DNA from: Heterodontus francisci
Taxonomy: Eukaryota
Assembly: GCF_036365525.1 (NCBI RefSeq)
Contig: NW_027140515.1
Span: 558,001 to 622,000, forward strand
Direction: 5' to 3'
Length of the DNA stretch: 64,000 bases
This document shows, one piece after another, positions 19,569-64,000 of the stretch. A model generated the notes under the pieces. It made no database searches and had not been told where the DNA came from. It saw only the letters and a list, made by a program, of their open reading frames with translations. The position numbers and the translations under genes were made by a program. How positions within the stretch are numbered: the stretch's first letter is position 1; the number at the start of each line of letters is the position of its first letter.

Positions 19569-19599
<31 letters not shown>

Positions 19600-27740: not shown

Positions 27741-28055
<315 letters not shown>

Positions 28056-28102
28056 TAAAATAACTTTATTAAAAGACAGATAAATAACCCAAAAACTCAA
28101 AT

Positions 28103-31100
28103 TCAAATGCCATTCTCGGCGTCGACGGTGCACTCCAGTCCCTGCGGTGCCCACCGGTCGCGGAAGGCCTCAAGCGTGCCGGCGGACACCGCATGCTCCC
28201 TCTCCAGGGACACCCGGGCGCGAACGTAACCGTGGAAGAGGGGCGGGCAATTAGGGAGGACGGCCCGCAGCCTGGACCTGTGAATTGCCACCTTGGCCAG
28301 GCCCAGGAGCAGACCGACGGGGAGATCCTCCTCCCGGCCCACGCCTCTCCGCACCGGGTGCCCAAAGATCAGCAGCGTGGGACTGAAGTGCAGCCAGAAC
28401 TTGAGGAGCAGCCCCTTCAGATACTCAAAGAGGGGCTGCAACCTCGCACACTCCGTATATTTGTGAAACACGGACTCGTCCAGGCCGCAGAAAGGACAGG
28501 CGGCCTGGGAGTCCGTGAACCTACTTAAAAGTCTATTGCACGGGACTGCTCTGTGCAGCACCCTCCACCCCAGGTCCCCGATGTAAAGGGGGAAGACTCC
28601 CATGTAGAGAGACCTCCATCAGGGTTTCCCCTCGCCGGCAGAAGGCAACGCGGACCGCCAGGGCGTGTCCGGCCGGCTGACGAGGGCGAGGAAGTGGAGA
28701 GTGTGCGGGAGCAGCCCGTACAGGAAACCCCTCCGCGCCGATTGGAATGGCAAGGAGGGCATTTCCGAGAGGCGGCTCGGGTGGTGCGGGAACGGCTCCC
28801 GAGGAGGATTTCAGGGCCTGGGTCCGATGAGCAGTTCCGGCCGAGCGGGAGTCAGCTCGGCCAGGAGTGCTCCGCACTCCCGAGCCCCCTCGCCACCCGC
28901 AGTGAGGGGCGTCCCGGGGGTTTCGGCTACTCCTCCGCCCGCCGGACCGTCCCCGGAGTCGGCCGCCCGGACAGCCGAGGCGCTCTCCTCCGCCGGCGGG
29001 GGAGCGCCCTGACTGGAGGCGACCATGTTCCAGACTCAGAATAGATCCCGGTAAAAGACAGGCAACTCCCTCAGAGAGGCGCGGCTAACGGACTCCACCG
29101 GGAGCTGCGTGTCGTCTTGAAGGCAGTGACACTGGCGGAAAAAATACGTCGCCAGCGCACACCATCTGGGAGGACGCTCGACGTACAGGTATCTCTGCAG
29201 GGTCCGAAGGCGGAGAGTCGCAGCCTGGGTGCGGACGCACACCAGCGACTGACCGCCCTCCTCGATCGGGAGACTCAGGACCGCGGCAGAGACCCAGTGT
29301 TTCCTCTTGCCCCAGAAGAAATCGACGAGTTTCTTCTGGATCTTGGTGACAAATACAGGGGGCGGGGCCAAAGTGACCAACCGGTACCACAGCATGGAGG
29401 CCACCAGTTGGTTTATGACCAACGCTCGGCCCCTGTAGGAAAGCACTCTGAGCAGTCCTGTCCAGCGCCCAGCCGAGCGGTGACTTTCGCATCCAACTCC
29501 TGCCAGTTTGCCGGCCAGGCTTCCTCAGCGGGGCTAAGGTGGACTCCCAGATAGAGGAGGTGCGTGGTGCTCCACGCAAAAGGTGTCATCTCCTCCGGCA
29601 GGGAGTCCACCCGCCACTGACCAACCAGGAGTCCGGAACATTTCTCCCAATTGATCCTCGCGGAGGACGCGGCAGAAAAGGTCTGCTGGCAGTCGCGCAT
29701 CCTCCGCAAGTCAACGGGATCTGTGATTGCGAGGAGCACGTCGTCGGCGTAAGCCGAGAGGACGGCCCGCATGGCCGGCTCGCGCAGAGCCAATCCCGTC
29801 AACCTCCTGCGAAGCAGGCACAGGAAGGGCTCCACGCAGATGGTATACAATTGGCCGGACATGGGGCACCCCTGACGCACTCCTCTCCCAAATCGAAGGG
29901 GCGCCGTCAAGGACCCGTTAACTTTGACTAGACACTCTGCGGCGGCGTATAAAAGTCGGACCCGGGCCACGAAATGCGGCCCGAGTCCGAAAGCGCGCAG
30001 AGTCCCGAAAAGGTAATCGTGATCCACCCTGTCGAACGCCTTCTCCTGATCGAGGGAGAGAAAGGCGACCGACTGACCAGTCCTCTGGGAAAGATGGATC
30101 AGGTCCCGGACCAGGTGGATGTTGTCCTGGATGGACCGCCCCGGGACCGTGTAGGACTGGTCGGGGTGGATCATGTGGGCCAGCACGGAGCCCAGGCGGG
30201 TAGACATAGCCCGGGCAAAGATCTTATAATCCGTGCTGAGAAGGGAGACCGGACGCCAGTTTTTAAGCAGGCGGAGATCGCCCCTCTTCGGCAGCAGGAC
30301 GATGACCGCCCTGCGCCACGAGAGGGGCATCACCCCGGTCGCCAGGCTTTCCCCCAGGACCCGCGCGTAATCGTCCCCCAGGACGTCCCAGAACGCCCGG
30401 AGGAACTCCACGGTCAACCCATCCAGCCCTGGGGATTTGCCCCTCGAGAGCTGGTGGAGGGCGCCAGTCAGCTCCGCCAACGTGAGCGGAGCCTCCAATC
30501 CTTCGGCGCCCTCCGGGCTGACCTGCGGCAGGTCCTCCCACAAAACTCTGCGCGCATCCTTGCTGGACGGATCCGGAGACAACAACGCACTGTAATAAGT
30601 CCGGACCAGGAGGCCCATTCCCTCCGGATCCGTGATGGAGGATCCGTCGTCGGCCAGCAGCTCAACGAGCTGCTTACGGACCCCCTGCCATTTTTCCAGC
30701 GAGTAGAAGAAGGGTGAGGTGCGGTCCAAATCTTCCAGTATCTGGATCCGCGACCTCACATACGCGCCTCGGGACCCTATGAGCTGCAGGTCCCTCAGCG
30801 CGCCCTTCTTCTCTTTGTATGCCTGCCACAGGGCCGGGTCCGCGACGGCATGACCGAGGCGGGACTCCAAGTCGAGCACCTCCCCCTCAAGGCGCCCGAT
30901 CTCCTCTTCCCGCCTCTTGGTCGACCCCTTCGCGTACTCCTGACAGAAGACGCGGATGTGAGTCTTGCCCACATCCCACCATAGCCTCAAGGAGGGGAAG
31001 CCCCCCTGCTTCCTTCTCCAGTCGGCCCAGAATCGACAGAACGAGTCCCGAAATCGCTCGTCCTCCAGCAGCCGGTTGTTAAAGTGCCAGTACGCGGACC

Positions 31101-31823
31101 CCGCCCGCGTGCGGAGCGGAGTAAACTCCGCCCACACCAGGCGGTGGTCCGAGCACGGCACCAGCCGCATGGAGGCCGCCGAAACGCGGGAGACGTACGC
31201 CTGCGAAATGTAGAGGCGGTCGATTCGCGACCCCCCTCCTCCAGACCTCCACGTGAAGGCGCTGGAGTCGGGATGGAGATTCCGCCAGACGTCCACCAAG
31301 TTAAGGGAGCTGATCAGTCCCCTCAACTTCTCCACCGACGCTTGGCCGCGCTGGGGACCGGAGCGATCCCCCACCTCGAGGGTGCAGTTAAAATCCCCCC
31401 CCCGAGGATGATGCACTCGCCGCTATCGATGGAGCTCAAGAGAGCGGACACTTCTTCAAAGAAGCGCGCTTGCAACGCGCCGGGCCTGGGCGCGTACACG
31501 TTCACAAAGTGGAGCGGCACGCTACCCAGGCGAACGGCGAGGTGGAGCAAGCGGCCCGGCACTAGCTCCTTGACTCCCAAGATCTCCGGCTGAAAAGTCG
31601 GGGCCAACAAGATAGCCACCCCACTAGAAATAGGGGTGAGGTGACTCATGTAGACCCCACCCTGCCACTCCAGGAGCCAGGTGGCTTCGTCTCCCGGAAC
31701 GGTGTGGGTTTCCTGCAGAAAGCTCACCGCGTATCTCCCTTCCCTAAGGACTGAGAGATTGTGAAATCTGCGGTGAGCCCCTCTGCTGCCGTTGATGTTG
31801 AGGCTGGCTATGGTTATCTTCAT
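28103..31823 (-). pseudogene. Tx1 copy 1 ORF2 (endonuclease + reverse transcriptase + C-terminal zinc knuckle), disrupted
   Basis: Motifs SLNING, FLQETH, GDFN, RIDR, SDH, KSPGLDG, LDQEKAFDRV, GVRQGCP, YADD and CPFC..H..C. Frameshifts in C-runs at ~31400 and ~29470; in-frame TGA at 29036, 28811 and 28619. Confidence 0.9.
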
Positions 31824-31855
31824 GTCAAAGGTAATTAAAACCCGTCACAAACACC

Positions 31856-33898
31856 TCACTGTGAGGAGGGAGTGGAAGTGCACCTGGCCCTCCACTCCCC
31901 CAGCAACCCATTGAAGAACACATTAAAACGGCGCCTCTCAACCAGTTTCACGTCCGCGCGCTTGCCCGCTATCTTAAGGGCGGCACGGACGGACTGTATG
32001 ATCAGCGCCAGATTCGACCAACGGTCGAGGGCCAGCTGAACTTTATTGCGGCAACCTCTGCAAGCCGCGAGGAAATCCCGGAGTTCCGCCGTGGGGATGA
32101 GAGGAGATTCGGTGGGAGGCACGAGGGACTCCACCACCTCACTGGCGATGGAATCAAGATCATCCTCCGTGCCCCGCACCGAATCCCCATCCTCCTCCGG
32201 GTCGTCACCGCCAGCGGCCGACACATCTGCCACACACTGTGGGGCGGACGTCCCGGCCGCGCCAGCTGGTCCCGCCTCCGTCACGATCCCACCCCCAGGA
32301 TCGATGACGGAGGAGTCCTCTCTGGGTTCTATTGTGAAACTGGAGCCTGTAGGCACCAGCGGTTCAGGACCCCCCTCCACCTCCGTCCCCAGGCCAATGA
32401 GTGGTCCAGGGGAGACAGAAGTTCCGGACTCCGGGAAACCAGCCGGAGCGGAGACTGGAGGCGGCGAGAGGAGGCCATCTCCCGCTCCGCCAGCACCCAC
32501 AGGCCCAGCAGATGGGGCAGCATTCTCAGTTATAACTGGGTCGGGTGTCTCCTGGTTGGTGGTGGACTCCGGCTGGGAGGCCGGACCCTCTGGGGCCTCG
32601 CCCTCCCCTTCATTCAGGGCACCCGACCCAGTAGCAGTGGCGGAATGGGCGGCTTCCCCAGGCTCCCCCACCACAAGCAGGGCCCCACTTACTCCTTCAG
32701 GAGGGGCCTCATGTACCGGGGCCATCCCCTCCCCTCCATCCTGAGGAATAGGGAGCACCTGCCCGTACTTTGTAGCCTTGGTAGTGGCGGTAGGGGGTAC
32801 CTGAGGACCAGAAACAGGAGACAGCTCCCCTCCAACAGATGGGCCCTGCACCTCAGGGCCCTGTGTTATTTCTGTGGAGGGGTGCCTTCTCCTCTTTTTC
32901 GCACTTGGGCGCGGAGACTCAGAGACCTCCATGTCATCAGAGGCCTCCGCCTCCACACCCTTTTTTTCCTTTCTTGTCACCCTCTGCCTGAGCCCAGCCC
33001 TGGGACAGGTGGATTCCATGGGAATGGGCTTTGGGCTGAGCTCAGGCTCGGGTTGAGTCAAAGTGTCCAGGGGACGCGCCTCATGATGTTTCTTTTTTCC
33101 CCGCGTCTTCCTTCCGCTCGGACGGACGCTCCCCTCCCCGCCGGAGGCTGTGAAAACCACAGCCTCCGGAACCGACTGAGTGGTGTTTATTGGATGTGTT
33201 GGGGGAGTGGGAGGAGGTGCTGTGGAACCACTCTGGGCCGCCGAGGTGGAGCTGGCGGCCGGGAGGTTGGGGCAGTTCTTACGAACATGCCCCACCCCCT
33301 TGCAGACGTGGCACCGCGCCCCATCCGAGGTCCAAAAGACGCGGTAGGCCGTCCCCTGGAACTCCACATTAAATTGGCCCTCCAAGACCTCCTCCCGCGC
33401 CACCTGCATAAATAACTGGCGGCGGAAGGAGTAGACATGTTGGAGGCTGTGCTCCCGAAGACCAAGCCGGACTGGGGTGATCCCCGACCTCACCTCCCCC
33501 AGATGGTGCAGGTGGGGGAGGAGGAGCTCACTGGGAATGAAGGGTGGGACGTTGGACAACATTATCCGATGCGCAGTGGCCCCCAGAGGGTCCACTGGCA
33601 GGAAGGTCCCCCCCACAGTGAGCCCTTTACTCAGGGCCAGGGACACCGCCCGCTCGGTCTTCAAAAAGAACACAGCCTTTCCATACATCTTTGAGGCCGC
33701 AACAATGGCCGAGGGGCCGACAACCACGGCCATTGCCTTAACGCAGGCCTCAATAGACATGTTGGGGTGGGGATAGCTCTTCACCCCATGGCTGCATGTC
33801 AATAATTTAAAGGGTGACGGGGCCACGTGGGCAGCCACAGAAGCTGCAGCTGCGTAGGTAGTAGAGGGCCCCGCCACCGGTGATGAAGGGCTTGCCAT
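31856..33898 (-). CDS. Tx1 copy 1 ORF1, intact, 680 aa from ATG 33898 (MASPSS...)
   Basis: Tx1-type N-terminal region (IVAASKMYGKAVFFLK..LSNVPPFI), zinc knuckle CHVCKGVGHVRKNC, basic NLS-like KKRRR and a long P/G/E-rich tail. Confidence 0.85.
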   Translation of the reverse strand: MASPSSPVAGPSTTYAAAASVAAHVAPSPFKLLTCSHGVKSYPHPNMSIEACVKAMAVVVGPSAIVAASKMYGKAVFFLKTERAVSLALSKGLTVGGTFLPVDPLGATAHRIMLSNVPPFIPSELLLPHLHHLGEVRSGITPVRLGLREHSLQHVYSFRRQLFMQVAREEVLEGQFNVEFQGTAYRVFWTSDGARCHVCKGVGHVRKNCPNLPAASSTSAAQSGSTAPPPTPPTHPINTTQSVPEAVVFTASGGEGSVRPSGRKTRGKKKHHEARPLDTLTQPEPELSPKPIPMESTCPRAGLRQRVTRKEKKGVEAEASDDMEVSESPRPSAKKRRRHPSTEITQGPEVQGPSVGGELSPVSGPQVPPTATTKATKYGQVLPIPQDGGEGMAPVHEAPPEGVSGALLVVGEPGEAAHSATATGSGALNEGEGEAPEGPASQPESTTNQETPDPVITENAAPSAGPVGAGGAGDGLLSPPPVSAPAGFPESGTSVSPGPLIGLGTEVEGGPEPLVPTGSSFTIEPREDSSVIDPGGGIVTEAGPAGAAGTSAPQCVADVSAAGGDDPEEDGDSVRGTEDDLDSIASEVVESLVPPTESPLIPTAELRDFLAACRGCRNKVQLALDRWSNLALIIQSVRAALKIAGKRADVKLVERRRFNVFFNGLLGEWRARCTSTPSSQ

Positions 33899-34586
33899 GG
33901 GTCCAAGAGCTAAACCCACCCCAAATTGTGGACTTGCACACCAAATATCAGCTATTAACTGAAAATATTGAATATATATATTAAAGACAAACAAACAAAC
34001 AACAGATTAGTGGAGAGGCTGAGGTAATAGAGGAGAGGCAAAGGCAGGCTGGAAGGGATGACTTGCTTTCTGGAGGTGGTGCTCACAGTACACTCAAAAC
34101 AGTCTTTGAAGTTGGTCTTCCGGTCTTCTGGTTGGGGGAGTCGTCTTCACCTGGGTCAGCTGAAGCTGCCCAGGCACTATCTATCCCCTTCCGTCTGTTT
34201 AGCTGGGCAGCTTCAGCTGACCCAGGCTTGGCAATTGGGGTGGGGAGGGAGCTTCCCTGTGTGCTTTTGCAGCAGCACAGATTCCTGTTGAATTGGCAGC
34301 CCCACCCCTTGTTGTTCCAGCCACTTGTTCCTCCCCCAACAGTCCAAAGTAAATTACTGGTGTTCAGCACCCACCTCCAGAAAAAGCCTTGTTTCCAAAA
34401 AATGTCCCTTTCTTCTCTTTAATGGAGACTGTTGTTGGAGTTTTCCTCTGCTTGTTGGTAGCTGCTCTCCCTTGCTCAGTGCAGCTCCTCTCTCCACCTC
34501 TGCAACCTCCAACTGCCACCAGCACTCTCAGCTGCACCTCGTTGAGGCTCTCAACACTCAGGCTCCCAAATCAGAGAGCAGCCAAT

Positions 34587-37520
<2,934 letters not shown>

Positions 37521-44214: not shown

Positions 44215-47200
44215 AGTCAAGTCCCACTCCAGAGAACTGAGCCCATAATCCAGGCGAACACTTCCCATGCAGTACTGAGGGAGCGCCGCACTGTCGGAGG
44301 GTCAGTACTGAGGGAGTGCCGTACTGTCGGAGGGTCAGTACTGAGGGAGTGCCGTACTGTCGGAGGGTCAGTACTGAGGGAGTGCCGTACTGTCGGAGGG
44401 TCAGTACTGAGGGAGTGCCGTACTGTCGGAGGGTCAGTACTGAGGGAGTGCCGTACTGTCGGAGGGTCAGTACTGAGGGAGTGCTGTACTATCGGAGGGT
44501 CAGTACTGAGGGAGTGCCGTACTGTCGGAGGGTCAGTACTGAGGGAACGCCGCACTGTCGGAGGGTCAGTACTGAGGGAGCACCGCACTGTCGGAGGGTC
44601 AGTACTGAGGGTGTGCCGCACTGTCGGAGGGTCAGTACAGAGGGAGCACCGCACTGTCGGAGGGTCAGTACTGAGGGAGCGCCGTACTGTCGGAGGGTCA
44701 GTACTGAGGGAGCACCGCACTGTCGGAGGGTCAGTACTGAGGGAACGCCTCACTGTCGGAGGGTCAGTACTGAGGGAGCGCCTCACTGTCGGAGGGTCAG
44801 TACTGAGGGAGCGCCTCACTGTCGGAGGGTCAGTACTGAGGGAGCGCCGCACTGTCGGAGGGTCAGTACTGAGGGTGTGCCGCACTGTCGGAGGGTCAGT
44901 ACTGAGGGAACGCCGCACTGTCGGAGGGTCAGTACTGAGGGAGCGCCGCACTGTCAGAGGGTCAGTACTGAGGGAACGCCGCACTGTCGGAGGGTCAGTA
45001 CTGGGGGAGTGCCGCACTGTCAGAGGGTCAGTACTGAGGGAGCGCCGCACTGTCGGAGGGTCTGCACTGAGGGAGCGCCTCACTGTCGGAGGGTCAGTAC
45101 TGAGGGAGTGCCGCACTGTCAGAGGGTCAGTACGGAGGGAGCGCCGCACTGTCGGAGGGTCAGTACTGAGGGAGTGCCACACTGTCAGAGGGTCTGTACT
45201 GAGGGAGCACCGCACTGTCGGAGGGTCAGTACTGAGGGAACGCCGCACTGTCGGAGGGTCAGTACTGAGGGAGCGCCTCACTGTCAGAGGGTCAGTACTG
45301 AGGGAGCGCCGCACTGTCGGAGGGTCAGTACTGAGGGAGCGCCGCACTGTCGGAGGGTCAGTACTGAGGAAACGCTGCACTGTCGGAGGGTCAGTACTGA
45401 GGGTGCGCCGCACTGTCAGAGGGTCAGTACTGAGGGAACGCCGCACTGTCGGAGGGTCAGTACTGAGGAAACGCCGCACTGTCGGAGGGTCAGTACTGAG
45501 GGAGCGCCGCACTGTCTGAGGGTCAGTACTGAGGGAGCGCCTCACTGTCGGAGGGTCAGTACTGAGGGAGTGCCGCACTGTCAGAGGGTCAGTACTGAGG
45601 GAGCGCCGCACTGTCGGAGGGTCAGTACTGAGGGAGCACCGCACTGTCGGAGGGTCAGTACTGAGGGAGCGTCGCACTGTCGGAGAGTCAGTACTGAGGG
45701 AGCGTCGCACTGTCGGAGGGTCAGTACTGAGGAAACGCTGCACTGTCGGAGGGTCAGTACTGAGGGAGCGCCGCACTGTCGGAGGGTCAGTACTGAGGGA
45801 GCGCCTCACTGTCGGAGAGTCAGTACTGAGGGAGCGCCGCACTGTCAGAGGGTCAGTACTGAGGGAGCACCGCACTGCCGGAGGGTCAGTACTGAGGGAG
45901 CACCGCACTGCCGGAGGGTCAGTACTGAGGGAGCGCCTCACTGTCGGAGAGTCAGTACTGAGGGAGCGCCTCACTGTCGGAGAGTCAGTACTGAGGGAGC
46001 GCCGCACTGTCAGAGGGTCAGTACTGAGGGAGCACCGCACTGCCGGAGGGTCAGTACTGAGGGAGCGCCTCACTGTCGGAGGGTCAGTACTGAGGGAGCA
46101 CCGCACTGTCGGAGGGTCAGTACTGAGGGAGCACCGCACTGTCGGAGGGTCAGTACTGAGGGAGCACCGCACTGTCGGAGAGTCAGTACTGAGGCAGCGC
46201 CGCACTGTCGGAGGGTCAGTACTGAGGGAACGCCGCACTGTCAGAGGGTCAGTACTGAGGGAGTGCCGCACTGTCGGAGGGTCAGTACTGAGGGAGCGCC
46301 GCACTGTCAGAGGGTCAGTACTGAGGGAGTGCCGCACTGTCGGAGGGTCAGTACTGAGGGAGCGCCGCACTGTCAGAGGGTCAGTACTGAGGGAGTGCCG
46401 CACTGTCGGAGGGTCAGTACTGAGGGAGTGCCGCACTGTCAGAGGGTCAGTACTGAGGGAGTGCCGCACTGTCAGAGGGTCAGTACTGAGGGAGTGCCGC
46501 ACTGTCAGAGGGTCAGTACTGAGGGAGTGCCGCACTGTCAGAGGGTCACTACTGAGGGAGTGCCGCACTGTCAGAGGGTCACTACTGAGGGAGTGCCGCA
46601 CTGTCAGAGGGTCACTACTGAGGGAGTGCCGCACTGTCAGAGGGTCAGTACTGAGGGAGCGCCGCACTGTCGGAGAGTCAGTAGTGAGGGAGTGCCGCAC
46701 TGTTGGAGGTTCAGTACTGAGGGAGTGCCGCACTGTTGGAGGTTCAGTACTGAGGGAGTGCCGCACTGTTGGAGGGTCAGTACTGAGGGAGCGCCGCACT
46801 GTCGGAGAGTCAGTACTGAGGGAGTGCCTCACTGTCAGAGGGTCAGTACTGAGGGAGCGCCGCACTGTCGGAGGGTCAGTACTGACGGAGTGCCGCGCTG
46901 TCGGAGGGTCAGTACTGAGGGAGTGCCGCACTGTCAGAGGGTCAGTACTGAGGGAGCGCCGCACTGTCGGAGGTGCCATCTTTCAGGATGAGACGATTAA
47001 CCCGAGGCCCCCGTCTGTCCTCTCAGGTGGATGAAAAAGATCCCACGGCCACTATTGGAAGAAGACCGGGGTGGCGGGAGTTCTCCCCGGGACCGATATT
47101 TATCCCTCAACCAACGTCGCTAAAAAAAAGGATAATCTGGGTCATTTATCACATTGCGGTTTGTGGGATCTTGCTGTGCACAAATTGGTTGTCGCGTTTC

Positions 47201-47300
47201 CTGCATCACAACAGTGACCGCACTGCAAAAAAAAAAACTTCCTTTGTGGACCGTGAAGTGTTTTGGAACATCCTGAGCTGGTGACAGGCGCTATTGAAAG
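44215..47300 (+). mobile_element. SacSINE1-like (tRNA head, Deu-domain) SINE with an internally expanded minisatellite
   Basis: 5' part TCAAGTCCCACTCCAGAG..ATAATCCAGG (B-box-like). After the array the sequence resumes GGAGGTGCCATCTTTCAGGATGAGACG..AAAGATCCCA.., which is Deu-domain-like, through an L2-like tail. Family name is from recollection. Confidence 0.7.
44273..46973 (+). repeat. 33-bp minisatellite, ~82 copies
   Basis: Directly visible. Confidence 0.96.
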
Positions 47301-47399
47301 GCAGTGTGTGAGATTGAACCCTGTCAGTATTTGTTCAGCTAGCCAGACGATAACGGTTACACATTAACAGGAGCAGGGTCGTCGCAGTGTCCGAGCGGG

Positions 47400-47816
47400 T
47401 CCTGGACCAATCACAGAGTGAGAAGCCGACAAAACCTCCGAGCGGCGGTCCAATGAGAGGCTGGAATGCGTGTCAGACCCTGACGGAGCCCTTATTAGTC
47501 ATGGGGATGGCCCAGGTACTGGGTTCAGAAACTTGATATAAGGGCGAGTTAATATTCGGCTGCAAAAATCAGGAATTCTCCCGAACGTCGAGTGCACGGA
47601 GCGAGGGAGAGGCAGACTGAGGAAGCAGCGAGAGCAGACCACAGAGGGAGCCTCAGTCCTGGGCGGTGAGCTTTGCAAGCCCACCACTGGAGCCAGCTCT
47701 CCACAGCGTGCTTGTCTCACAAACGACGGAGAAAGAAGAACACACTGATCTCCCGATTGAGGAGCTCTGCACTGAAGTGGAATCCCGTCCTGGGACAGTG
47801 GCAGACTGCCCCTCAG
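47400..47816 (+). promoter_or_regulatory. Candidate promoter and first exon of the KLF15-like gene
   Basis: CCAAT at 47407 and 47450, TATAAG at 47537, and donor TCAG|gtaaac at 47816/17, phase-compatible with the acceptor at 54487/88. Confidence 0.5.
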
Positions 47817-47993
47817 GTAAACACCTTCAGCACATTCAACAGAGGCGGGGATGTGTCACATTTCCAACTGTGGCAAGATAACCAGGAGGTTTACTGATGG
47901 GGACAGTGTAGAGGGAGCTTTACTCTGTATCTAACCCCCGTTTTTTTTTTAAAATAACTTTATTAAAACCAGATAAATAAACAAAAAACTCAA

Positions 47994-50900
47994 ATTAAAA
48001 TGCCATTCTCGGCGTCAACGATGCACTCCAGTCCCTGCGGTGCCCACCGGTCGCGGGAGGTCTCAAGCGTACCGGCGGACACCGCATGCTCCTTCTCCAG
48101 GGACACCGGGGCGCGAACGTAACCGCGGAAGAGGGGCAGGCAATCGGGGAGGACGGAACCCCCTGACGGCCCGCAACCTGGACCTGTGAATTGCCACCTT
48201 GGCCAGGCCCAGGAGCAGACCGACGAGGAGATCCTCCTCCCGGCCCAAGCCCCTCCGCTCCCGGTGCCCAAAGATCAGGAGCGTGGGACTGAAGTGCAGC
48301 CAGAATTTGAGGAGCAGCCCCTTCAGATACTCAAATAGGGGCTGCAACCTCGCACACTCCGTATAAATGTGGAACACGGACTCGTCCAGGCCGCAGAAAG
48401 TACAGCTGGCCTGGGAGGCCGTGAACCTACTTCAAAGCCTATTGCACGGGACTGCTCTGTGCAGCACCCTCCACCCCAGGTCCCGCCGATTGGAATGGCA
48501 CGGAGGGCATTTCTGAGAGGCTGCTCGGGTTGTGCGGGACTGGCTCCCGAGGAGGGTTTTGGGGCCTGGGTCCGATGAGCAGTTCCGGCCGAGCGGGGGC
48601 AGCTCCGCCGGGATCGCTCCGCACTCCGGAGCCCCCTCGCCACCCGCAGTGAGGGGCGTCCCGGGGGTTTCGGCTACTCCTCCGCCCGCCGGACCGTCCC
48701 CGGAGTCGGCCGCCCGGACAGCCGAGGCGCTCTCCTCCGCCGGCGGGGGAGCGCCCTGACTGGAGGCGACCATGTTCCAGACTCGGAATAGATCCCGGTA
48801 AAAGACAGGCAACTCCCTCAGAGAGGCGCGGTTAACGGACTCCACCGGGAGCTGCGTGTCATCTTGAAGGCAGTGACACTGGCGGAAAAAATACGTCGCC
48901 AGCGCACACCATCTGGGAGGACGCTCGACGTACAGGTATCTCTGCAGGGTCCGAAGGCGGAGAGTCGCAGCCTGGGTGCGGACGCACACCAGCGACTGAC
49001 CGCCCTCCTCGATCGGGAGACTCAGGACCGCGGCAGAGACCCAGTGTTTCCTCTTGCCCCAGAAGAAATCGACGAGTTTCTTCTGGATCTTGGTGGCAAA
49101 TACAGGGGGCGGGGCCAAAGTGACCAACCGGTACCACAACATGGAGGCCACCAGTTGGTTTATGACCAACGCTCGGCCCCTGTAGGAAAGCACTCGGAGC
49201 AGTCCTGTCCAGCGCCCCAGCCGAGCGGTGACTTTCGCCTCCAACTCCTGCCAGTTTGCCGGCCAGGCTTCCTCAGCGGGGCTAAGGTGGACTCCCAGAT
49301 AGAGGAGGTGCGTGGTGCTCCACGCAAAAGGTGTCATCTCCTCCGGCAGGGAGTCCACCCGCCACTGACCAACCAGGAGTCCGGAACATTTCTCCCAATT
49401 GAACCTCGCGGAGGACGCGGCAGAAAAGGTCTGCTGGCAGTCGCGCATCCTCCGCAAGTCAACGGGATCTGTGATTGCGAGGAGCACGTCGACGGCGTAA
49501 GCCGAGAGGACGACCCGCATGACCGGCTCGCGCAGAGCCAATCCTGCCAACCTCCTGCGAAGCAGGCACAGGAAGGGCTCCACGCAGATGGTATACAATT
49601 GGCCGGACATGGGGCATCCCTGACGCACTCCTCTCCCAAAGCGAAGGGACGCTGTCAAGGACCCGTTAACTTTGACTAGACACTCTGCGGCGGCGTATAA
49701 AAGTCGGACCCGGGCCACAAAATGCGGCCAGAGTCCGAAAGCGCGCAGAGTCCCGAAAAGGTAATCGTGATCCACCCTGTCGAACGCCTTCTCCTGATCG
49801 AGGGAGAGAAAGGCGACCGACTGACCAGTCCTCTGGGAAAGATGGATCAGGTCCCGGACCAGGTGGATGTTGTCCTGGATGGACCGCCCCGGGACCGTGT
49901 AGGACTGGTCGGGGTGGATCATGTGGGCCAGCACGGAGCCCAGGCGGGTAGACATAGCCCGGGCAAAGATCTTATAATCCGTGCTGAGGAGGAAGACCGG
50001 ACGCCAGTTTTTAAGCAGGTGGAGATTGCCCCTCTTCGGCAGCAGGACGATGACCGCCCTGCGCCACGAGAGGGGCATCTCCCCGGTCGCCAGGCTTTCC
50101 CCCAGGACCCGCGCGTAATCGTCCCCCAGGACGTCCCAGAACGCCCTGAGGAACTCCACGGTCAACCCATCCAGCCCTGGGGATTTGCCCCTCGAGAGCT
50201 GGTGGAGGGCGCCAGTCAGCTCCGCCATCGTGAGCGGAGCCTCCAATCCTTCGGCGCCCTCCGGGCTGACCTGCTGCAGGTCCTCCCACAAAACTCTGCA
50301 CGCATCCTCGCTGGACGGATCCGGAGAGAACAACGCACTGTAATACGTCCGGACCAGGAGGCCCATTCCCTCTGGATCCGTGATGGAGGATCCGTCGTCG
50401 GCCAGCAGTTCGACGAGCTGCTTACGGACCCCCCGCCATTTTTCCAGCGAGTAGAAGAAGGGTGAGGCGCGGTCCAAATCTTCCAGGATCTGGATCCGCG
50501 ACCTCACGAACGTGCCTCGGGACCCTATGAGCTGCAGGTCCCTCTTTGTACGCCTGTCACAGGGCCGGGTCCACGACGGCATGACCGAGGCGGGAGTCCA
50601 AGTCGAGCACCTCCCTCTCAAGGCGCCCAATCTCGGCCTCCCCCGCCTCTTGGTCGACCCCTTCGCGTACTCCTGACAGAAGACACGGATGTGAGTCTTG
50701 CCCACATCCCACCATAGCCTCAAGGAGGGGAAGCCCCCCTGCTTCCTTCTCCAGTCGGCCCAGAATCGACAGAACGAGTCCTGAAATCGCTCGTCCTCCA
50801 GCAGCCGGTTGTTAAAGTGCCAGTACGCGGACCCTGCCCGCGTGCGGAGCGGAGTGAACTCCGCCCACACCAGGAGGTGGTCCGAGCACGGCACCAGCCG

Positions 50901-51542
50901 CATGGAGGCCGCTGAGACGCGGGAGACGTACGCCTGCGAAATGTATAGGCGGTCGATTCGCGACCCCCCTCCTCCAGACCTCCACGTGAAGGCGCTGGAG
51001 TCGGGATGGAGATTCCGCCAGACGTCCACCAAGTTAAGGGAGCTGATCAGTCCCCTCAACTTCTCCACCGACACTTGGCTGCGCTGGGGACCGGAGCGAT
51101 CCCCCACCTCGAGGGTGCAGTTAAAATCCTCCCCGAGGATGATGCACTCGCCGCTATCGATGGAGCTCAAGAGAGCGGACACTTCTTCAAAGAAGCGCGC
51201 TTGCAATGCGCCGGGCCTGGGCGCGTACACGTTCACAAAGTGGAGCGGCACGCTACCCAGGCGAACGGCAAGGTGGAGCAAGCGGCCCGGCACTAGCTCC
51301 TTGACCCCCAAGATCTCCGGCTGAAAAGTCGGGGCCAACAAGATAGCCACCCCACTAGAAATAGGGGTGAGGTGACTCATGTAGACCCCGCCCTGCGGGG
51401 TGGCTTCGTCTCCCGGAACGGTGTGGGTTTCCTGCAGAAAGCTCACTGCGTATCTCCCTTCCCTGAGGACTGAGAGATTGTGAAATCTGCGGTGAGACCC
51501 CCTGCTGCCATTGATGTTGAGGCTGGCTATGGTTATCTTCAT
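47994..51542 (-). pseudogene. Tx1 copy 2 ORF2, defective
   Basis: A 1036-aa open frame, but with RT YADD changed to YAVD, a deletion in the endonuclease (EATPQGG vs EATWLLEWQGG), a compensated frameshift at ~50540-50645, a further frameshift near 48600 and a ~160-bp deletion at ~48483. Confidence 0.88.
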
Positions 51543-51574
51543 GTCAAAGGTACTTAAAACCCGTCACCAACAGC

Positions 51575-53563
51575 TCACTGTGAGGAGGGAGTGGAAGTGC
51601 ACCTGGCCCTCCACTCCCCCAGCAACCCATTGAGGAACACATTAAACCGGCGCCTCTCAACCAGTTTCACGCCCGCGCGCTTGCCCGTTATCTTCAGGGC
51701 AGCACGGACGGACTGGATGATCAGCGCCAGATTCAACCAGCGGTCGAGGGCCAGCTGAACTTTATTGCGGCAGCCCCTGCAAACCGCGAGGAAATCCCGG
51801 AGTTCCGCCGTGGGGATGAGAGGAGATTCGGTGGGAGGCTGAGGGACCCCACCACCTCACTGGCGATGGAATCAAGATCATCCTCCGTGCCCCCCACCGA
51901 ATCCCCATCCTCCTCCGGGTCGTCACCGCCAGCGGCCGACACGCCCACCGCACACTGTGGGGCGGACGTCCCGGCCGCGCCAGCTGGTCCCGCCTCCATC
52001 ACGATCCCACCCCCAGGATCGATGGCGGAGGAGTCCTCTCTGGGTTCTATTGTGAAACTGGATCCTGTAGGCACCAGCGGCCCAGGACCCCCACCTCCGT
52101 CCCCAGGCCAATGAGTGGTCCAGGGGAGACAGAAGTTCCCGACTCTGGAAATCCAGCCGGAGCCGAGACCGGAGGCGGCGAGAGGAGGCCATCTCCCGCT
52201 CCGCCAGCACCCACAGGCCCAGCAGATGGTGCAGCATTCTCGGTTACAACCGGGTCAGGTGTCTCCATGTTGGTGGTGGACTCCGGTTGGGAGGGCCGAC
52301 CCTCTGGGGCCTCACCCTCCCCTTCACTCAGGGCACCCGACCCAGTAGCAGTGGCGGAATGGGCGGCGTCCCCAGGCTCCCCCACCACAAGCAGGGCCCA
52401 ACTTCCTCCTTCAGGAGGGGCTTCAAGTACCGGGGCCTTCCCCTCCCCTCCATCCTGAGGAATAGGGTGCTCCTGCCTGGACTTTGTAGCCTTGGTGGTG
52501 GCAGTAGGGGAAACCTGGGGACCCGAAACAGAAGACAGCTCCCCTCCAACAGATGGGCCCTGCGCCTCAGGGCCCCTCGTTACCTCCGTGGAGGGGTGCC
52601 TTCTCCTCTTTTTTGCACTAGGGCGCAGAGGCTCAGAGACCTCCATGTCATCAGAGGCCTCCGCACCCTCCTTTTTTTTGGTCACCCTGGGCCTGAGCCC
52701 AGCCCTGGGACAGGTGGATTCCATGAGAACGTGCTTTGGGCTGAGCTCAGGCTCGGGTTGTTTCAATGTGTCCAGGGGACGCGCCTCTTGATGTTTCTTT
52801 TGCCTCCGCGTCTTCCTTCCACTCGGACGGGCACTCCCCTCCACAGCCTCCGGAACCAACTGAGCGGTGTCTGTTGGATGTGTGGGGGGAGTGGGAGGAC
52901 CCTGGGCCGCCGAGGTGGAGCTGGCGGCCGGGAGGTTGGGGCAGTTCTTACGAACATGCCCCACCCCCTTGCAGACGTGGCACCGCGCCCTGTCCGAGGT
53001 CCAAAAGACGCGGCAGGCCGTCCCCTGGAACTCCAAATTAAATTGGCCATCCGAGTCCTCCTCCCGCGCCAGCTGCATAAATACCTGGCGGCGGAAGGAG
53101 TAGATTGGAGGCTGTGCTCCCGAAGACCAAGCCGGACTGGGGTGATCCCCGACCTCACCTCCCCCATGTGGTGCAGGTGGGGAAGGAGGAGCTCACTGGG
53201 AATAAAGGGCGGGACGTTTGATAAGATTATCCGCTGCGCAGTGGCCCCTAGAGGGTCCACCGGCAGGAAAGTCCCACCCACAGTGAGCCCTTTACTCAGG
53301 GCCAGGGACACGGCCCGCTCCGTCTTCAAGAAGAACACAGCCTTACCGTACATTTTTGAGGCTGCCACAATGGCCGAGGGGCCGACAACCTCGGCCATTG
53401 ACTTTACGCAGGCCTCTATAGACATATTGGGGTGGGGATAGCTCTTTACCCCATGGCTTTAAGTAATTAATTTAAAAGGTGACGGGGTCACACGGGTGGC
53501 CACAGAGGTTACAGCCGCATAGGTATGAGAAGGCCCTGCCACCGGTGATGATGGGCTTGCCAT
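51575..53563 (-). pseudogene. Tx1 copy 2 ORF1, frameshifted
   Basis: Homologous to copy 1 ORF1 but split over ORFs 52763-53425, 52047-53078 and 51733-52074; retains CHVCKGVGHVRKNC. Confidence 0.85.
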
Positions 53564-54187
53564 GGCTCAAGAGCCAAACCTACCCCCAATTTGCAGGTAA
53601 GCAAGCAAACAAAGAAACCAACTAGGAGGTTTGGGGAGAGGCTGAGGGTATACAGGAAATGGGAAAGACAGGCTGCAAGCGATGACTTTGCTTTTTTTCC
53701 CCCTTAAAGGGTGGTACTCAGAGCACTGTAAACACTTCTGGTCTTCTGGTTGTGGGAGGGGTCTTCACCTGGGTCATCCGAAAGCTGCCCAGGCTCTAGT
53801 TCGATCCTTATGTCTCTATTAGCCAGGCAGCTTCAGCTGACTCAGGCTGGCCAATTGGGGTGGGGAGGGAGCTTCCCTGCAACTTTAGTGCAACTGCACA
53901 GCTCCCTACAGAATTGTATAGCCCCCCACCCCTTGTTCTTCTGGCCTCTTTCACCTCCCACAACAGTCCAAATGAAATGAAAGTTTGGTGCTCGACACCC
54001 ACCTCGAAATACAGCCTTTTTCAAAGTCTTTCCTCCTCTGCAGCAAAAGTTGTTGAAAGGTTTTTTGCAGTTCCCTCCTCAGCTCTCCCTCTCCAGCAGC
54101 AACTGACTGCAGCACTGTCAGCTGCACCTCGTTGAGGCACTCAGTATTCCCAATCAGAGAGGAGCCAATCCCCGTTTTTTTTTTTTT

Positions 54188-54452
54188 GGAGCTTTACTCT
54201 GTATCTAACCCCCGTACTGTACCTGGCCTGGGTAGTGTTTGATGGGGACAGTGTAGAGGGAGCTTTACTCTGTATCTAACCCCCGTACTGTACCTGTCCT
54301 GGGAGTGTTTGATGGGGGACAGTGTAGAGGGAGCTTTACTCTGTATCTAACCCCTGTCCTGGGAGTGTTTGATGGGGGACAGTGTAGAGGGAGCTTTACT
54401 CTGTATCTAACCCCTGTACTGTACCTGTCCTGGGAGTGTTTGATGGGACAAT
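54188..54452 (+). repeat. ~70-bp minisatellite (Tx1 target repeat), ~4 units; left part at 47895-47940
   Basis: Same unit as 34587-34808; the array is interrupted by Tx1 copy 2. Confidence 0.92.
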
Positions 54453-54573
54453 TGGGTCTAATTCTGGTGTCCGTGTTCAATTGGCAGGTTTGAATCGGGT
54501 GACGATCGCAGACTCTCGGTTACGTGGAGTTATTTTCCCTGGACCTGTGCAGGAGTGTAACCCCGCTTTCGTG

Positions 54574-55358
54574 ATGTTCTACTACAACAGCCCGTGTGGC
54601 CGAGTCCAGGAGTCGCTGCCCTCACCGCACTGGGAGTATGACAGTGACAGTTCCAGCCAGGGCTTCCCATGCTCCAAGTGCTCAGGGCCCAGCCAGAGCT
54701 TCATTGACTACCTGCTGTCTCAGGCTGCGGGCTCCGAACAGCCTGGCAGAGAATTCCAGCTTCCCGACTACCACCAAAGGGCTACCCGCGTCTTCCAGCC
54801 CACCCTGGACGAGATCGACGAGTTCCTTCTGGAGCACACCGGCCTGACGCTGAGAGGGGACAGCGGCTCGGAGGCTGGGCACCGGCCTCCGCGAGTGGGC
54901 TGCGAGGCCCAGGGAGGACAGGGGGCCTGCCCGAGGCCAGCGGGGGCAGGGGGCGAGCAGCAGCAGCAGCTGGCGCGGGCCGGGGGACAGGCGCCCTCCA
55001 GCTCCCCGGCACCCTCTCCCCTCCTCCTGCAGCTGCAGTGCTTGCGGGAGGGCCGGGGGCCGCTCTCCCAGCTGCTGGTCAGCATCCAGGGCCAGACCTA
55101 CGCCCTGGTGCCCCAGGTCGCCCCCTCCGCGGCCCCCCGGCAGTTCGTCCACATCGCTGCCAAGCTGTCGGCTCAGGGCCAGGCCGAGTCGGCCAGCAAG
55201 CCCCCCGGCCTCAGCTCGCCAGCCGTGCTGAAAGTGCACAAGTGCTCGTTCCCGGGCTGCAGCAAGATGTACCGGAAAAACAGTCACCTGAAAGCCCACA
55301 ACAGGCGGCACACTGGAGAAAAACCCTTCGCTTGTACCTGGCCTGGCTGTGAGTGGAG
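54574..55358 (+). CDS. KLF15: KLF15-like zinc-finger transcription factor, main coding exon (exon begins at 54488; start codon uncertain)
   Basis: KLF15-type motifs [30 protein letters not shown] and [16 protein letters not shown]; ZF1 [34 protein letters not shown]; donor AG|gtgagt. Probably a paralogue rather than the orthologue. Confidence 0.85.
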
Positions 55359-55389
55359 GTGAGTGGAGACTGCAGCGACCGCCAGTCAT

Positions 55390-55770
55390 TACATAGCACC
55401 ATTAACACCGTCAACTAAAAGCAATATCCCCAAAAACGCTTCCCAGCCGAAATCAGGCACCAGACGCAAAGGGACAGCTCACAAAGGCTGGGTCAAGGGC
55501 GTAAGATTTAAGGAGCGTCTTAAAGGAGGGTAGAGAGAGAGGCGGAGAGGTTTAGGGAGGGAATTCCAGAGATTCGGCCCCCCCCCCAGGCAGCTGAAGG
55601 CTCGACCGCCAATGGTGGAGCGATGGGAATCGGGGGGGGGGGGGGTGAAGAGGCCGGAATGGGAGGAGCGCAGAGATCTCGGAGGGTTGTGGGGGCTGGA
55701 GGAGGTTACAGAAATAGGGAGGGAGGGGGGGGGGAGCGAGGACCATGGAGGGATTTGAAAACGAGGATTA
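55390..55770 (-). mobile_element. L2 LINE 3' fragment in the KLF intron
   Basis: Reverse-complement similarity to the L2 fragment at 23100-23365 (YFCNLLQP, gccttcagctgcc, ctctggaattccctccc). Confidence 0.7.
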
Positions 55771-60207: not shown

Positions 60208-60342
60208 TTGAGAGAGAGAGAGAGAGAGACCCAGGATAGTCAGAGAGAGAGAGAGAGACCCGGGATAGTGAGAAAGAGACCCGGGATAGTGAGAGAGAGA
60301 GAGACCCGGGATAGTGAGAGTGAGAGAGAGAGAGAGACCCAG

Positions 60343-60376
<34 letters not shown>

Positions 60377-60628
60377 CCCGGGATAGTGAGAGAGAGAGAG
60401 AGAGAGACCCAGGATAGTCAGAGAGAGAGAGAGAGACCGGGATAGTGAGAAAGAGAAAGAGACCCGGGATAGTGAGAGANNNNNNNNNNNNNNNNNNNNN
60501 NNNNNNNNNNNNNNNNNNNNNNNNNNNNNNNNNNNNNNNNNNNNNNNNNNNNNNNNNNNNNNNNNNNNNNNNNNNNNNNNNNNNNNNNNNNNNNNNNNNN
60601 NNNNNNNNNNNNNNNNNNAGAGACCCGG

Positions 60629-60659
<31 letters not shown>

Positions 60660-60785
60660 ACCCGGGATAGTGAGAGAGAGAGAAAGAGAGAGAGACCCGG
60701 GATAGTGAGAGAGAGAGAGAGACCCGGGATAGTGAGAGAGAGAGAGACCCGGGATAGTGAGAGAGAGAGAGAGAGAGAGACCCGG

Positions 60786-60816
<31 letters not shown>

Positions 60817-61556
60817 ACCCGGGATAGCGAGAGAGAGAGAGAGAGACCCGGGATAGTGAGAGAGAGAAAGAGACCCGGGATAGTGAGAGAGAGAGAGACC
60901 CGGGATAGTGAGAGAGAGAGAGAGAGAGAGACCCGGGATAGTGAGAGAGAGANNNNNNNNNNNNNNNNNNNNNNNNNNNNNNNNNNNNNNNNNNNNNNNN
61001 NNNNNNNNNNNNNNNNNNNNNNNNNNNNNNNNNNNNNNNNNNNNNNNNNNNNNNNNNNNNNNNNNNNNNNNNNNNNNNNNNNNNNNNNNNNNNNNNNNNN
61101 NNNNNNNNNNNNNNNNNNNNNNNNNNNNNNNNNNNNNNNNNNNNNNNNNNNNNNNNNNNNNNNNNNNNNNAGAGAGAGANNNNNNNNNNNNNNNNNNNNN
61201 NNNNNNNNNNNNNNNNNNNNNNNNNNNNNNNNNNNNNNNNNNNNNNNNNNNNNNNNNNNNNNNNNNNNNNNNNNNNNNNNNNNNNNNNNNNNNNNNNNNN
61301 NNNNNNNNNNNNNNNNNNNNNNNNNNGAGANNNNNNNNNNNNNNNNNNNNNNNNNNNNNNNNNNNNNNNNNNNNNNNNNNNNNNNNNNNNNNNNNNNNNN
61401 NNNNNNNNNNNNNNNNNNNNNNNNNNNNNNNNNNNNNNNNNNNNNNNNNNNNNNNNNNNNNNGAGAGAGACCCGGGATAGTGAGAGAGAGAGAGAGACCC
61501 AGGATAGGGAGAGAGAGAGAGAGACCCGGGATAGTGAGAGAGAGAGAGAGACCCGG

Positions 61557-61590
<34 letters not shown>

Positions 61591-63271
61591 CCCGGGATGG
61601 AGAGAGAGAGAGTCCCAGGATAGAGAGATAGGGAGAGACCCGGAATAGATAGACAGAGAGAGAGAGACCCGGTATAGAGTGTGAAAGAGACCCGGGATAG
61701 AGTGAGAGATAGAGACCTGGGATAGAGGGTGAGAGAGACCCGGGATAGGGAGAGAGGGAGAGACGGAAAGACCCAGGATGCAGAGAAGGAGAGATCAGAC
61801 ACCGGATGGAGAGAGAGAGTCCCAGGATAGAGAGAGAGAGAGAGAGAGAGACCCGAGATGGAGAGAGAGAGAGAGAGTCCCAGGATAGAGAGAGAGAGAG
61901 AGAGTCCCAGGATAGAGAGATAGGGAGAGACCCGGAATAGATAGACAGAGAGAGAGAGACCCGGTATAGAGTGTGAGAGAGACCCGGGATAGGGAGTGAT
62001 AGAGACCCGGGATCGGGAGAGAGAGAGAGACCCGGGATAGAGAGAGAGAGAGAGAGAGACCTGGGATAGTGAGAGAGACCCGGGATAGAGAGAGAGAGAG
62101 AGAGTGACCCGGGAGAGTGAGAGAGACCCGGGATAGAGAGAGGGAGAGAGTGGAGAGAGAGACCCGGGATAGTGAGAGAGAGAGAGAGACCCAGGATAGT
62201 GAGAGAGAGAGAGAGACCCGGGATAGTGAGAGAGAGACTGGGGATAGAGAGAGACCCGGGATAGAGAGAGAGAGAGAGTGAGAGACCTGGGATAGAGAGA
62301 GAGAGAGACCCGGGACAGAGAGAGAGAGACCCAGGATAGAGAGAGAGACCCAGGATGGAGAGAGAGACCCGGGATAGAGAGAGAGAGACCCAGGATGGAG
62401 AGAGAGACCCAGGATAGAGTGATAGAGAGAGACCCGGGATGGAGAGAGAGAGAGAGACCCAGGATAGAGAGAGAGAGAGACCCGGGACAGAGAGAGAGAG
62501 AGAGAGACCCAGGATAGAGTGGGAGAGAGAGACCCGGGATGGAGAGAGAGAGAGAGAGAGACCCGGGATAGAGTGAGAGATAGAGACCCGGGATGAAGGG
62601 TGAGAGAGTCCGGGATAGTGAGAGAGAGAAAGAGAGAGAGAGACCTGGGATAGAGGGTGAGAGAGACCTGGGATAGTGAGAGAGACCTGGGATAGTGAGA
62701 GAGACCCGGGATAGAGAGAGAGAGAGAGAGAGCCAGGATAGGGAGAGAGAGAGAGAGACCTGGAATAGACAGACAGAGAGAGAGAGAGACCCGGGATCGA
62801 GTGTGAGAGAGACCCGGGATAGAGTGTGAGAGAGACCCGGGATAGTGAGAGAGACCCGGGATAGGGAGAGAGAGAGACCCGGGATGGAGAGAGGGAGAGA
62901 CAGAAAGACCCAGGATGCAGAGAAAGAGAGAGGGACACCGGATGGAGAGAGAGAGAGAGTGACCCGGGATGGATAGAGAGAGACCCGGGATAGAGAGAGA
63001 GAGAGAGTGAGAGACCCGGGATAGAGAGAGAGAGAGACCTGGGATAGAGTGAGAGATAGAGACCCGGGATAGAGGGTGAGAGAGACCTGGGATAGAGAGA
63101 GAGAGAGAGACCCGGGATAGAGGGTGAGAGAGACCTGGGATAGAGAGAGAGAGAGAGAGACCCAGGATCGGGAGAGAGGGAGAGACAGAAAGACCCAGGA
63201 TGCAGAGGAAGAGAGAGACACACCGGATGGACAGAGAGAGAGGGACTCCCAGGATAGAGAGAGAGACCCGA

Positions 63272-63302
<31 letters not shown>

Positions 63303-63412
63303 TCCCAGGATGGAGAGAGAGAGACTGGGGATGGAGAGAGAGAGACTGGGGATAGAGAGAGAGAAAGAGAGACCCAGCATAGAGAGAGAGAGAGGGAGAC
63401 ATGGGATAGAGA
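60208..63412 (+). repeat. (GA)n/CCCGGGATAG complex satellite, same family and strand as 4644-22085, with several irregular N runs
   Basis: Directly visible. Confidence 0.95.
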
Positions 63413-64000
63413 GGTGCTGGGAGACCCTGAGCTGGGAGAGTCTCAGTTGGGAGAGTGGGTGCTGGGAGACCCTATGTTGGGAGACTCTGTGCTGGGACAG
63501 TGGGTGTTGGGAGAGTCTGTGCTGGGTGACCCTGTGCTGGGATAGCGGGTGCTGGGAGACCCTATGTTGGGAGACTCTGTGCAGGGACAATGGGTGCTGG
63601 GAAACTCTGCTGGGACAGGAGCTTCTGGAAAACTCTGTGTTGGGACAACAGCTGCTGGGAATCTTTCTCCTGGAACAGGGGCTGCTGGGAGACTGTGCGG
63701 GGACAGGGGCTTCTGGGAAACTCTGTGCTGGGACAGCAGCTGCTGGGAAACTTTCGGATGGGACAGGGCTTCTGGGAAAATCTGTGCTGGGACAGGGGCT
63801 TCTGGGAAACCCTGTGCTGGGACAGCAGCTGCTGGTGAACTCTGCTAGGACAGTGGGTGCTGGGAGACCCTGTGCTGGGACATTGGGTGCTGGGGGATTC
63901 TGTGCTGGGTCAGGGGCTTCTGGGAAATTCTGTGCTGGGACAGCAGCTGCTAGGAAACTTTGTGCTGAGACAGCGGCTGCTGGGAGACTCTGTGCTGGGA
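63413..64000 (+). repeat. ~30-bp degenerate minisatellite (CTCTGTGCTGGGACAGCAGCTGCTGGGAAA-like)
   Basis: Directly visible. Confidence 0.85.

Follow-up and report, generated by a model that had tools for sequence, protein, structure and literature searches.

Two LINE copies and their target minisatellite

The window, by which we mean the whole 64,000-nucleotide stretch of Heterodontus francisci DNA analyzed here, contains two minus-strand copies of one non-LTR retrotransposon, each of which sits in a minisatellite array. Copy 2 (47951..54169, − strand) comprises a 5' UTR, an ORF1 (ATG at 53563) that is frameshifted, and an ORF2 encoding an APE endonuclease and a reverse transcriptase (RT) (about 51542-48432). 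It ends, soon after an AATAAA, in a poly(A) tail of 10 nt (47941..47950, − strand; T10 on the + strand). Copy 1 (27954..34586, − strand) is also frameshifted and has a longer, A-rich 3' end. The two copies are 97% identical in ORF2, 92% in ORF1, and 81% in the 5' UTR. Copy 2 has YAVD in place of YADD in the RT motif, a 158-bp deletion at 48483/4, and a 12-bp deletion in the endonuclease. As judged from their sequences, both copies are dead.

ORF2 displays an N-terminal APE endonuclease domain (PF03372, E 8e-13) and an RT domain (PF00078, E 3e-33). It is 52% identical to Xenopus Tx1L ORF2 over 89% of the query (1036 bits), with 62% identity in the RT, and it scores 242 bits to human L1 ORF2p and 82 bits to R2, in a different database from that of the Tx1L score. 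In an RT tree of 19 rows, rooted at the midpoint and built without an L1 outgroup, both copies group with a ray sequence and form a 100/99 branch with Tx1L, turtle, and sturgeon. These features place the element in the Tx1 clade. A horn-shark protein is 84% identical to the ORF2 query over a third of the query length. The endonuclease hairpin loop, which is the target-reading part, is WRSGGGG in both copies (ORF2 residues about 190-205) and in this horn-shark protein. A CCHC motif is visible in ORF1 of copy 1, with the zf-CCHC profile below the cut-off (E 0.04).

The untranslated ends show further features. Copy 1 extends ∼90 nt past the polyadenylation point of copy 2 (27954-28050), ending in an interrupted A-run, and this extension folds modestly (z −2.28, with 5 of 200 shuffles equally good); two 3' ends thus seem to exist in the family. 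The outermost part of the 5' end carries two CCAAT-like boxes 15 bp apart (54150 and 54165 in copy 2, 34567 and 34582 in copy 1), which are conserved though the remaining 5' UTR is 81% identical, and which may be a promoter element. An Rfam scan of 47000-55500 identified no family at the gathering score (two chance matches), and shuffled sequences fold as well as the 5' ends do (z −0.23 and 0.19); a 5' ribozyme is thus not indicated.

Both elements lie antisense within introns. Copy 2 occupies an intron of a C2H2 zinc-finger gene (47817..54487, + strand), as shown by a contig of the public run X1 (see below) that skips 6671 bp with GT..AG ends at a depth of 975. Profile matches to zf-C2H2 at this gene, which we take to be KLF/SP-like, are weak. 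Without the insertion, the intron would measure ∼397-440 bp, the lower value being obtained by subtracting the element, CCCCG, T13, and the 27-mer discussed below. Copy 1 is flanked by exons of a Ras-family GTPase (Pfam Ras; 27760-35206, + strand), presumably Rab7-like, and its intron is 6967 bp with the element and 329 bp without. The satellite thus acts as a landing pad on which an element of 6.2-6.6 kb swells introns of 330-440 bp about 15-20-fold.

The target is a minisatellite with a unit of 70-71 bp. To the left of copy 2, a partial unit (47895..47940, + strand) ends at the target bond, immediately after CTAACCCCCG, and the remaining array (54215..54447, + strand) consists of units of 71, 71, and 60 bp plus a partial unit, with empty bonds at 54285, 54356, and 54416. 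For copy 1, just 18 bp of the unit precede the bond (27936..27953, + strand), and on its right are CCCCG and three units (34587..34808, + strand), its 5' end joining CCCCG directly with no T-run. Both copies in the window thus share one insertion bond, between CTAACCCC(C)G and T, and read ends fall at the same bond on both sides. Two of the nine bond-like sites in the window are directly followed by an element, and the right side of the bond varies at +2 (TAC/TGC). The target motif had no match in the genome contig collection that was searched. Its 13 single matches in metagenome contigs and one in viral contigs are due to chance, since each is limited to 20 bp of the unit at most and none matches the element.

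Two aspects of the arrays are worth recording. Both elements occupy the leftmost bond of their array (27953 and 47940), for which the chance is roughly 1 in 16 to 1 in 20; this may reflect a positional preference, or right-hand arrays that were partly carried in or expanded later. With the elements removed, the arrays (27936-34808 and 47895-54447) begin and end at nearly the same unit phase, with overlaps of ∼23 and ∼10 bp, as though an integral number of units had been inserted into a short site of matching sequence, in what are two cases only. Other repeats in the window include a fragment of another LINE RT (36793-37818, − strand; RVT_1, E 1e-6), which we assume to be CR1-like and which shows no DNA-level relationship to the Tx1 copies, and two arrays of one 33-bp minisatellite (35257-36471 and 44270-46973; 37 and 82 copies, 93% matches). 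A very long GA-rich satellite with a CCCGGG core (4645-22046 and 60210-63413), 17 kb in one block, contains most of the eight N gaps of the assembly in the window.

The 5' junction of copy 2 and tail-only junctions in public runs

At its 5' end, copy 2 reads CCAAT (54165-69), CCCCG (54170-74), T13 (54175-87), and a 27-mer (54188-54214), the latter three exactly as given in the initial annotation when the letters are read again. CCCCG (54170..54174, + strand), which also follows copy 1 (34587-34591), is either an apparent 5-bp target site duplication (TSD) of the full-length element (6 bp with T) or an RNA-borne leader. T13 (54175..54187) is an orphan A13 on the − strand, whose orientation matches that of the element's own tail. 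In the window, CCCCG followed by at least five T occurs three times, every one at an element junction, and not at all on the opposite strand. Two of the 12 A/T runs of at least 8 nt are preceded by CCCCG, compared with ∼0.014 expected by chance, and CTAACCCC(C)G followed by T5 occurs twice, compared with none in 100 shuffles. Because these counts far exceed chance expectation, T13 is not a chance run; as originally proposed, it is a second poly(A)-type tail that begins at the same bond and has the same orientation. The order element, CCCCG, and tail is that of two insertions separated by a TSD-type piece of target.

The 27-mer is less informative. It is identical to 47914-47940 (47914..47940, + strand), and the match gains one base rightward (28 bp with T) and none leftward, so that the perfect 27-bp duplication originally described is real as an identity. 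It is, however, not independent evidence for an insertion, since it is the last 27 bp of the minisatellite unit and part of each unit, with four exact copies in the window (34777, 47914, 54188, and 54259) and four more with 1-2 mismatches. A 27-bp TSD as stand-alone evidence is thus ruled out. The partial unit (54188..54214, + strand) is either the TSD of the orphan tail or a unit remnant after a 44-bp deletion, and because the 27-mer has no diagnostic variant and the letters are identical, a TSD of 27/28 bp is indistinguishable from a deletion that removes 44 bp and runs into the following unit. Hence, T13 is the real signal at this junction, and the 27-mer proves little.

We next turned to four public runs of the best-matching species, aligned to 47400-54900 at 90% likeness. 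X1 (RNA by guess) and X2 (DNA by guess) are contig sets from one sample, possibly the window's own source; X21 and X22 are raw-read runs from other samples, X22 being RAD. Runs X6-8 are like X1, RNA by guess only. The rows listed (15 of 359 joints, 12 of 202 between-letter rows, and 24 of 2245 loose ends) speak to presence, not frequency. The element family is plentiful, its ORF2 and 3' end being covered in X21 at a depth of about 300-750, compared with 0-0.6 at the unique flanks, which by a rough estimate would correspond to thousands of genomic copies.

Among the 15 of 359 joints listed, X1 and X2 contain at least five distinct element-free joints in which the target, CCCCG, and a T-run lead directly into satellite. 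In X1, these are 47950>54283 (depth 588), where the satellite resumes 3 bp before the bond, and 47950>54412 (depth 160), where it resumes 5 bp before the bond (about 10 bp with the matching letters between). In X2, they are 47948>54385 (depth 102, two contigs), 47950>54256 (depth 49), and 47950>47917 (depth 44, with 18 further T-rich letters), where the satellite resumes 32, 30, and 24 bp before the bond, respectively. With a stated side length of 23-24, the left piece includes the bond in three of the five. The 27-bp register of the window lies inside the 24-32 group of these joints. A sixth joint, X1 54184>54238 (depth 56), is placed on the T-run at the 5' end and resumes at 48; it is probably either a different element's 5' end with a T-run behind it or a further allele of the copy 2 locus. 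The search for other tail-only insertions at the motif that the initial annotation had suggested was thus positive. Tail-only insertions are a standing class in the genome of this species, and the orphan tail of copy 2 is a genuine member of a class that is present elsewhere in the genome.

Full-length elements also join the target directly, as seen in the X1 joint 54144>54281 and in 217 X21 reads with loose ends before 54281, the consensus of which ends AGCCAAT (agreement only 0.54). A further 449 X21 reads continue past the bond as G plus T-rich sequence (agreement 0.47), indicating that the site is heavily used. No row among those listed for X1, X2, X21, and X22 spans the T13 junction of the copy 2 locus. 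The single-copy contigs of X2 end at 47923 and restart at 54481, and therefore X2 contigs cannot bridge the arrays. None of the tail-only joints known elsewhere in the genome is assignable to the copy 2 locus as an intermediate allele with the tail and without the element. No tandem joint, i.e. the 5' end of one element joined to the 3' end of another, occurs among the 15 of 359 joints listed. In X22, there is almost no depth at the PstI site near the element's 5' end.

Proposed serial insertion and competing explanations

The account that we favor, tentatively, is serial insertion at one bond, which once left a poly(A) tail only and later a full-length element. A Tx1-clade family with APE and RT would nick the + strand of a dispersed 70-bp minisatellite between CTAACCCC(C)G and T, and a poly(A) RNA would be reverse-transcribed with the nicked 3' end as primer, as in established target-primed reverse transcription (TPRT). 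The first event would have aborted after 13 nt of tail, its far end being rejoined 27-28 bp back in the unit (a TSD or, equally, the next unit with 44 bp lost), and the target would have kept its left half. Later, the same bond would have received a full-length element, which would have joined at CCCCG as full-length copies usually do. The nick chemistry, the order of the events, and the use of the same machinery for the orphan tail are what we infer here. The tail-only class together with the direct full-length junctions (copy 1, the X1 joint, and the 217 loose ends) favors serial insertion, as do the bond shared by both copies, with two of nine bond-like sites carrying an element, the position of the window's 27 within the 24-32 group, and the heavy use of the site. 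Copy 1, with only 18 bp of the unit on its left and a right side that is variable at +2, is in agreement. There are also precedents for sequential insertion in SINEU-3 (PMC4494074) and R1 (PMC2718515). On the other hand, the rows listed contain neither one that spans the T13 junction nor an allele with the tail alone that is assignable to this locus. In addition, an incoming R1 copy enters at the 5' junction of the existing one, which is the reverse order (PMC2718515), and the Tx1L endonuclease still nicks when 7 upstream bp are replaced (PMC1950540), so that, in the closest relative studied, recognition depends in large part on the side that serial insertion sacrifices.

The same letters could have arisen in other ways, which we consider less probable. 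An unlikely alternative is a template jump within one event: a full-length RNA starting with CGGGG is copied, the RT jumps to the 3' poly(A) of an RNA, writes T13, and stops, and the far end is joined at a second nick 27-28 bp off. This makes a third targeting event unnecessary, and the claim of the initial annotation that either of its two models implies such an event is therefore not valid in general. Template switching has been invoked for same-orientation two-transcript L1 insertions (PMC11702581) and for 5' additions to Tx1-mobilized SINEU (PMC4494074). The 27-bp register fits the 24-32 group here too, and X1 54184>54238 provides a second record of a T-run after a 5' CCCCG. Such a jump, however, requires a putative RNA 5' end exactly at CGGGG, and the element-free T-run joints demonstrate that no element has to be in place before a tail-only insertion arises. 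Rather unlikely is the second model of the initial annotation, a source element lying downstream of another tail, in a tandem or at a tail-bearing site, as in the "insertion site rearrangement" of R1A. Its transcript would carry A13-CGGGG at the 5' end, fail to anneal to the target, and be joined with a 27-28-bp TSD. Transcripts of melanogaster-type R1A do carry upstream target, in which case an RNA-borne leader comes after the TSD (PMC2718515), and some SINEU-2 copies carry the 5' flank of their source (PMC4494074). The head-to-tail source first proposed needs a tandem junction, which is absent among the 15 of 359 joints listed, where full-length 5' junctions are mostly direct.

It is quite unlikely, by our estimate, that the order was reversed, with the full element arriving before the tail and producing a 5-bp TSD. 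The bond between CCCCG and TACTG, regenerated on the 5' side of the element, would then have received a tail-only insertion that removed 44 bp from the following unit. This order predicts the same sequence as serial insertion with the tail first; because a TSD and a deletion look alike within an array, the order of events cannot be read from the letters. It would place the new insertion where R1 tandem copies are added (PMC2718515), and the Tx1L endonuclease tolerates replacement of upstream bases (PMC1950540). It would nevertheless require nicking at a site where no more than 5 native bases remain on the left, and a 39-47-bp deletion for each tail-only joint of the 24-32 group. Moreover, the short glycine-rich hairpin loop of the shark endonuclease may, speculatively, read fewer bases right of the nick. 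It is improbable, in our view, that T13 is all that remains of another element or SINE that lay alongside and subsequently lost its body, or that it is filler of non-retrotransposon origin introduced during break repair. The age of copy 2 suffices for private deletions (its 158-bp deletion, with read ends at 48484), but a deletion would have to end exactly at a tail, and filler is not expected to start at the family's bond. An assembly or polishing artefact at the edge of a repeat is very improbable. The N gaps in other repeats of the window and the lack of a listed read across the junction would allow for it, yet the T13-GGAGC join is absent elsewhere in the window, leaving no source for mis-copying, and similarly built joints appear in independent contigs from two runs of one sample. 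Twin priming is ruled out by orientation, the tract being A13 in the element sense, in contrast to the poly(T) of the L1 loci (PMC2837659).

Serial insertion with the tail first, which the tail-only joints favor, carries a corollary that the initial annotation had extended to both of its models, namely that recognition lies mostly left of the nick. This corollary is not general: it follows only from the tail-first order, whereas the order with the full element first and a 44-bp deletion would give recognition mainly on the right. Left-side recognition is consistent with copy 1, for which 18 native bases on the left suffice, with the variation at +2 on the right, and, more speculatively, with a hairpin loop that is short and glycine-rich compared with that of Tx1L. 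Evidence against it comes from Tx1L, whose endonuclease still nicks, more weakly, after 7 upstream bp are changed to a T-tract (PMC1950540), and from the entry of new R1 copies at the 5' junction (PMC2718515).

A broader reading is possible, although we consider it doubtful: an undescribed shark Tx1 family would hit one bond of a 70-bp minisatellite, join its 5' end in two registers, and drive variation of the repeat. The family would probably be present in thousands of copies and the minisatellite dispersed. By default, the second strand would be joined about 24-32 bp from the first nick, as visible in aborted tail-only insertions, and full-length RNAs would bear a CGGGG leader that anneals to the target and mimics a 5-bp TSD. 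Aborted reactions would leave runs of poly(T) and duplicated partial units in the satellite, and sites would be hit repeatedly because the left half of the target survives. If this were true, a LINE endonuclease would rank among the main sources of variation between units of the satellite that it targets. Abundant aborted insertions in a site-specific Tx1 family of high copy number would offer natural material for studying how the second strand is joined, which is the least understood step in LINE integration. Sequence analysis of a full shark assembly could address how TSD length varies with the completeness of the 5' end and whether recognition uses the left or the right side of the nick.

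Comparison with known systems

The junction is one footprint of a known process, with precedents in R1 and SINEU-3/Tx1, in a family and target that were not found in the literature searched. Tx1-like repeats are present in sharks (PMC8455134). The publications on shark or satellite-targeting Tx1 that we searched, as a set outside Repbase and subscription papers, contain no description of this family or its target. According to a tree legend in Kojima 2015, Tx1 targets include satellites, and the supplements of that paper list Tx1 targets and may thus bear on the novelty of the family (PMC4494074).

As at the L1 loci with 5' homopolymers, there is a homopolymer at the 5' end of a LINE. At those loci, Meyer 2010 describes twin priming, in which poly(T) in the element sense is an inverted tail (PMC2837659). 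The shark tract differs in being poly(A), set off from the element by target-type CGGGG, and twin priming is therefore inapplicable. L1 insertions composed of two transcripts are also on record (PMC11702581). L1 TSD length depends on truncation, in the direction opposite to that of the two-register reading in the shark (Kojima 2010, PMC2912911).

In Drosophila R1, tandem arrays form by re-insertion into the regenerated target (Stage and Eickbush 2009), and in R1A the second-strand registers differ between full-length and truncated copies, and the TSD can have an RNA-borne leader behind it (PMC2718515). The shark locus resembles R1 in that, under serial insertion, a regenerated target would have been re-used. 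Unlike the shark element, R1 belongs to another clade, targets rDNA, and places new copies at the 5' junction, whereas under the tail-first order the shark element would have entered at the 3' junction of an older tail (PMC2718515). Tandem SINEU-3 copies sandwiching a TSD have been read as sequential insertion by Tx1 machinery (Kojima 2015), and like SINEU-3/Tx1-Mar of crocodilians, the shark family targets another repeat (PMC4494074). Both SINEU-3 partners, however, are whole SINEs, in contrast to the bare tail and two registers (5 and 27) at the shark locus.

The closest studied relative is Tx1L of Xenopus laevis (YTX2_XENLA), the only biochemically studied member of this vertebrate clade in the literature searched. 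Tx1L has a TSD of ∼23 bp, compared with 5-6 bp at the full-length junction of the shark family. Like the shark element, it has two ORFs with APE and RT and inserts at one site in a repeat (PMC1919474, PMC4494074, and PMC1950540), and in a nicking assay its target specificity resides in the endonuclease (PMC1950540). The two differ in their targets, which are the Tx1D transposon for Tx1L and a dispersed 70-bp intronic minisatellite for the shark family, and in the hairpin loop of the endonuclease, which at 7 aa (WRSGGGG) is four residues shorter in the shark family than in Tx1L (YVRVRDGHVSQ, 11 aa).
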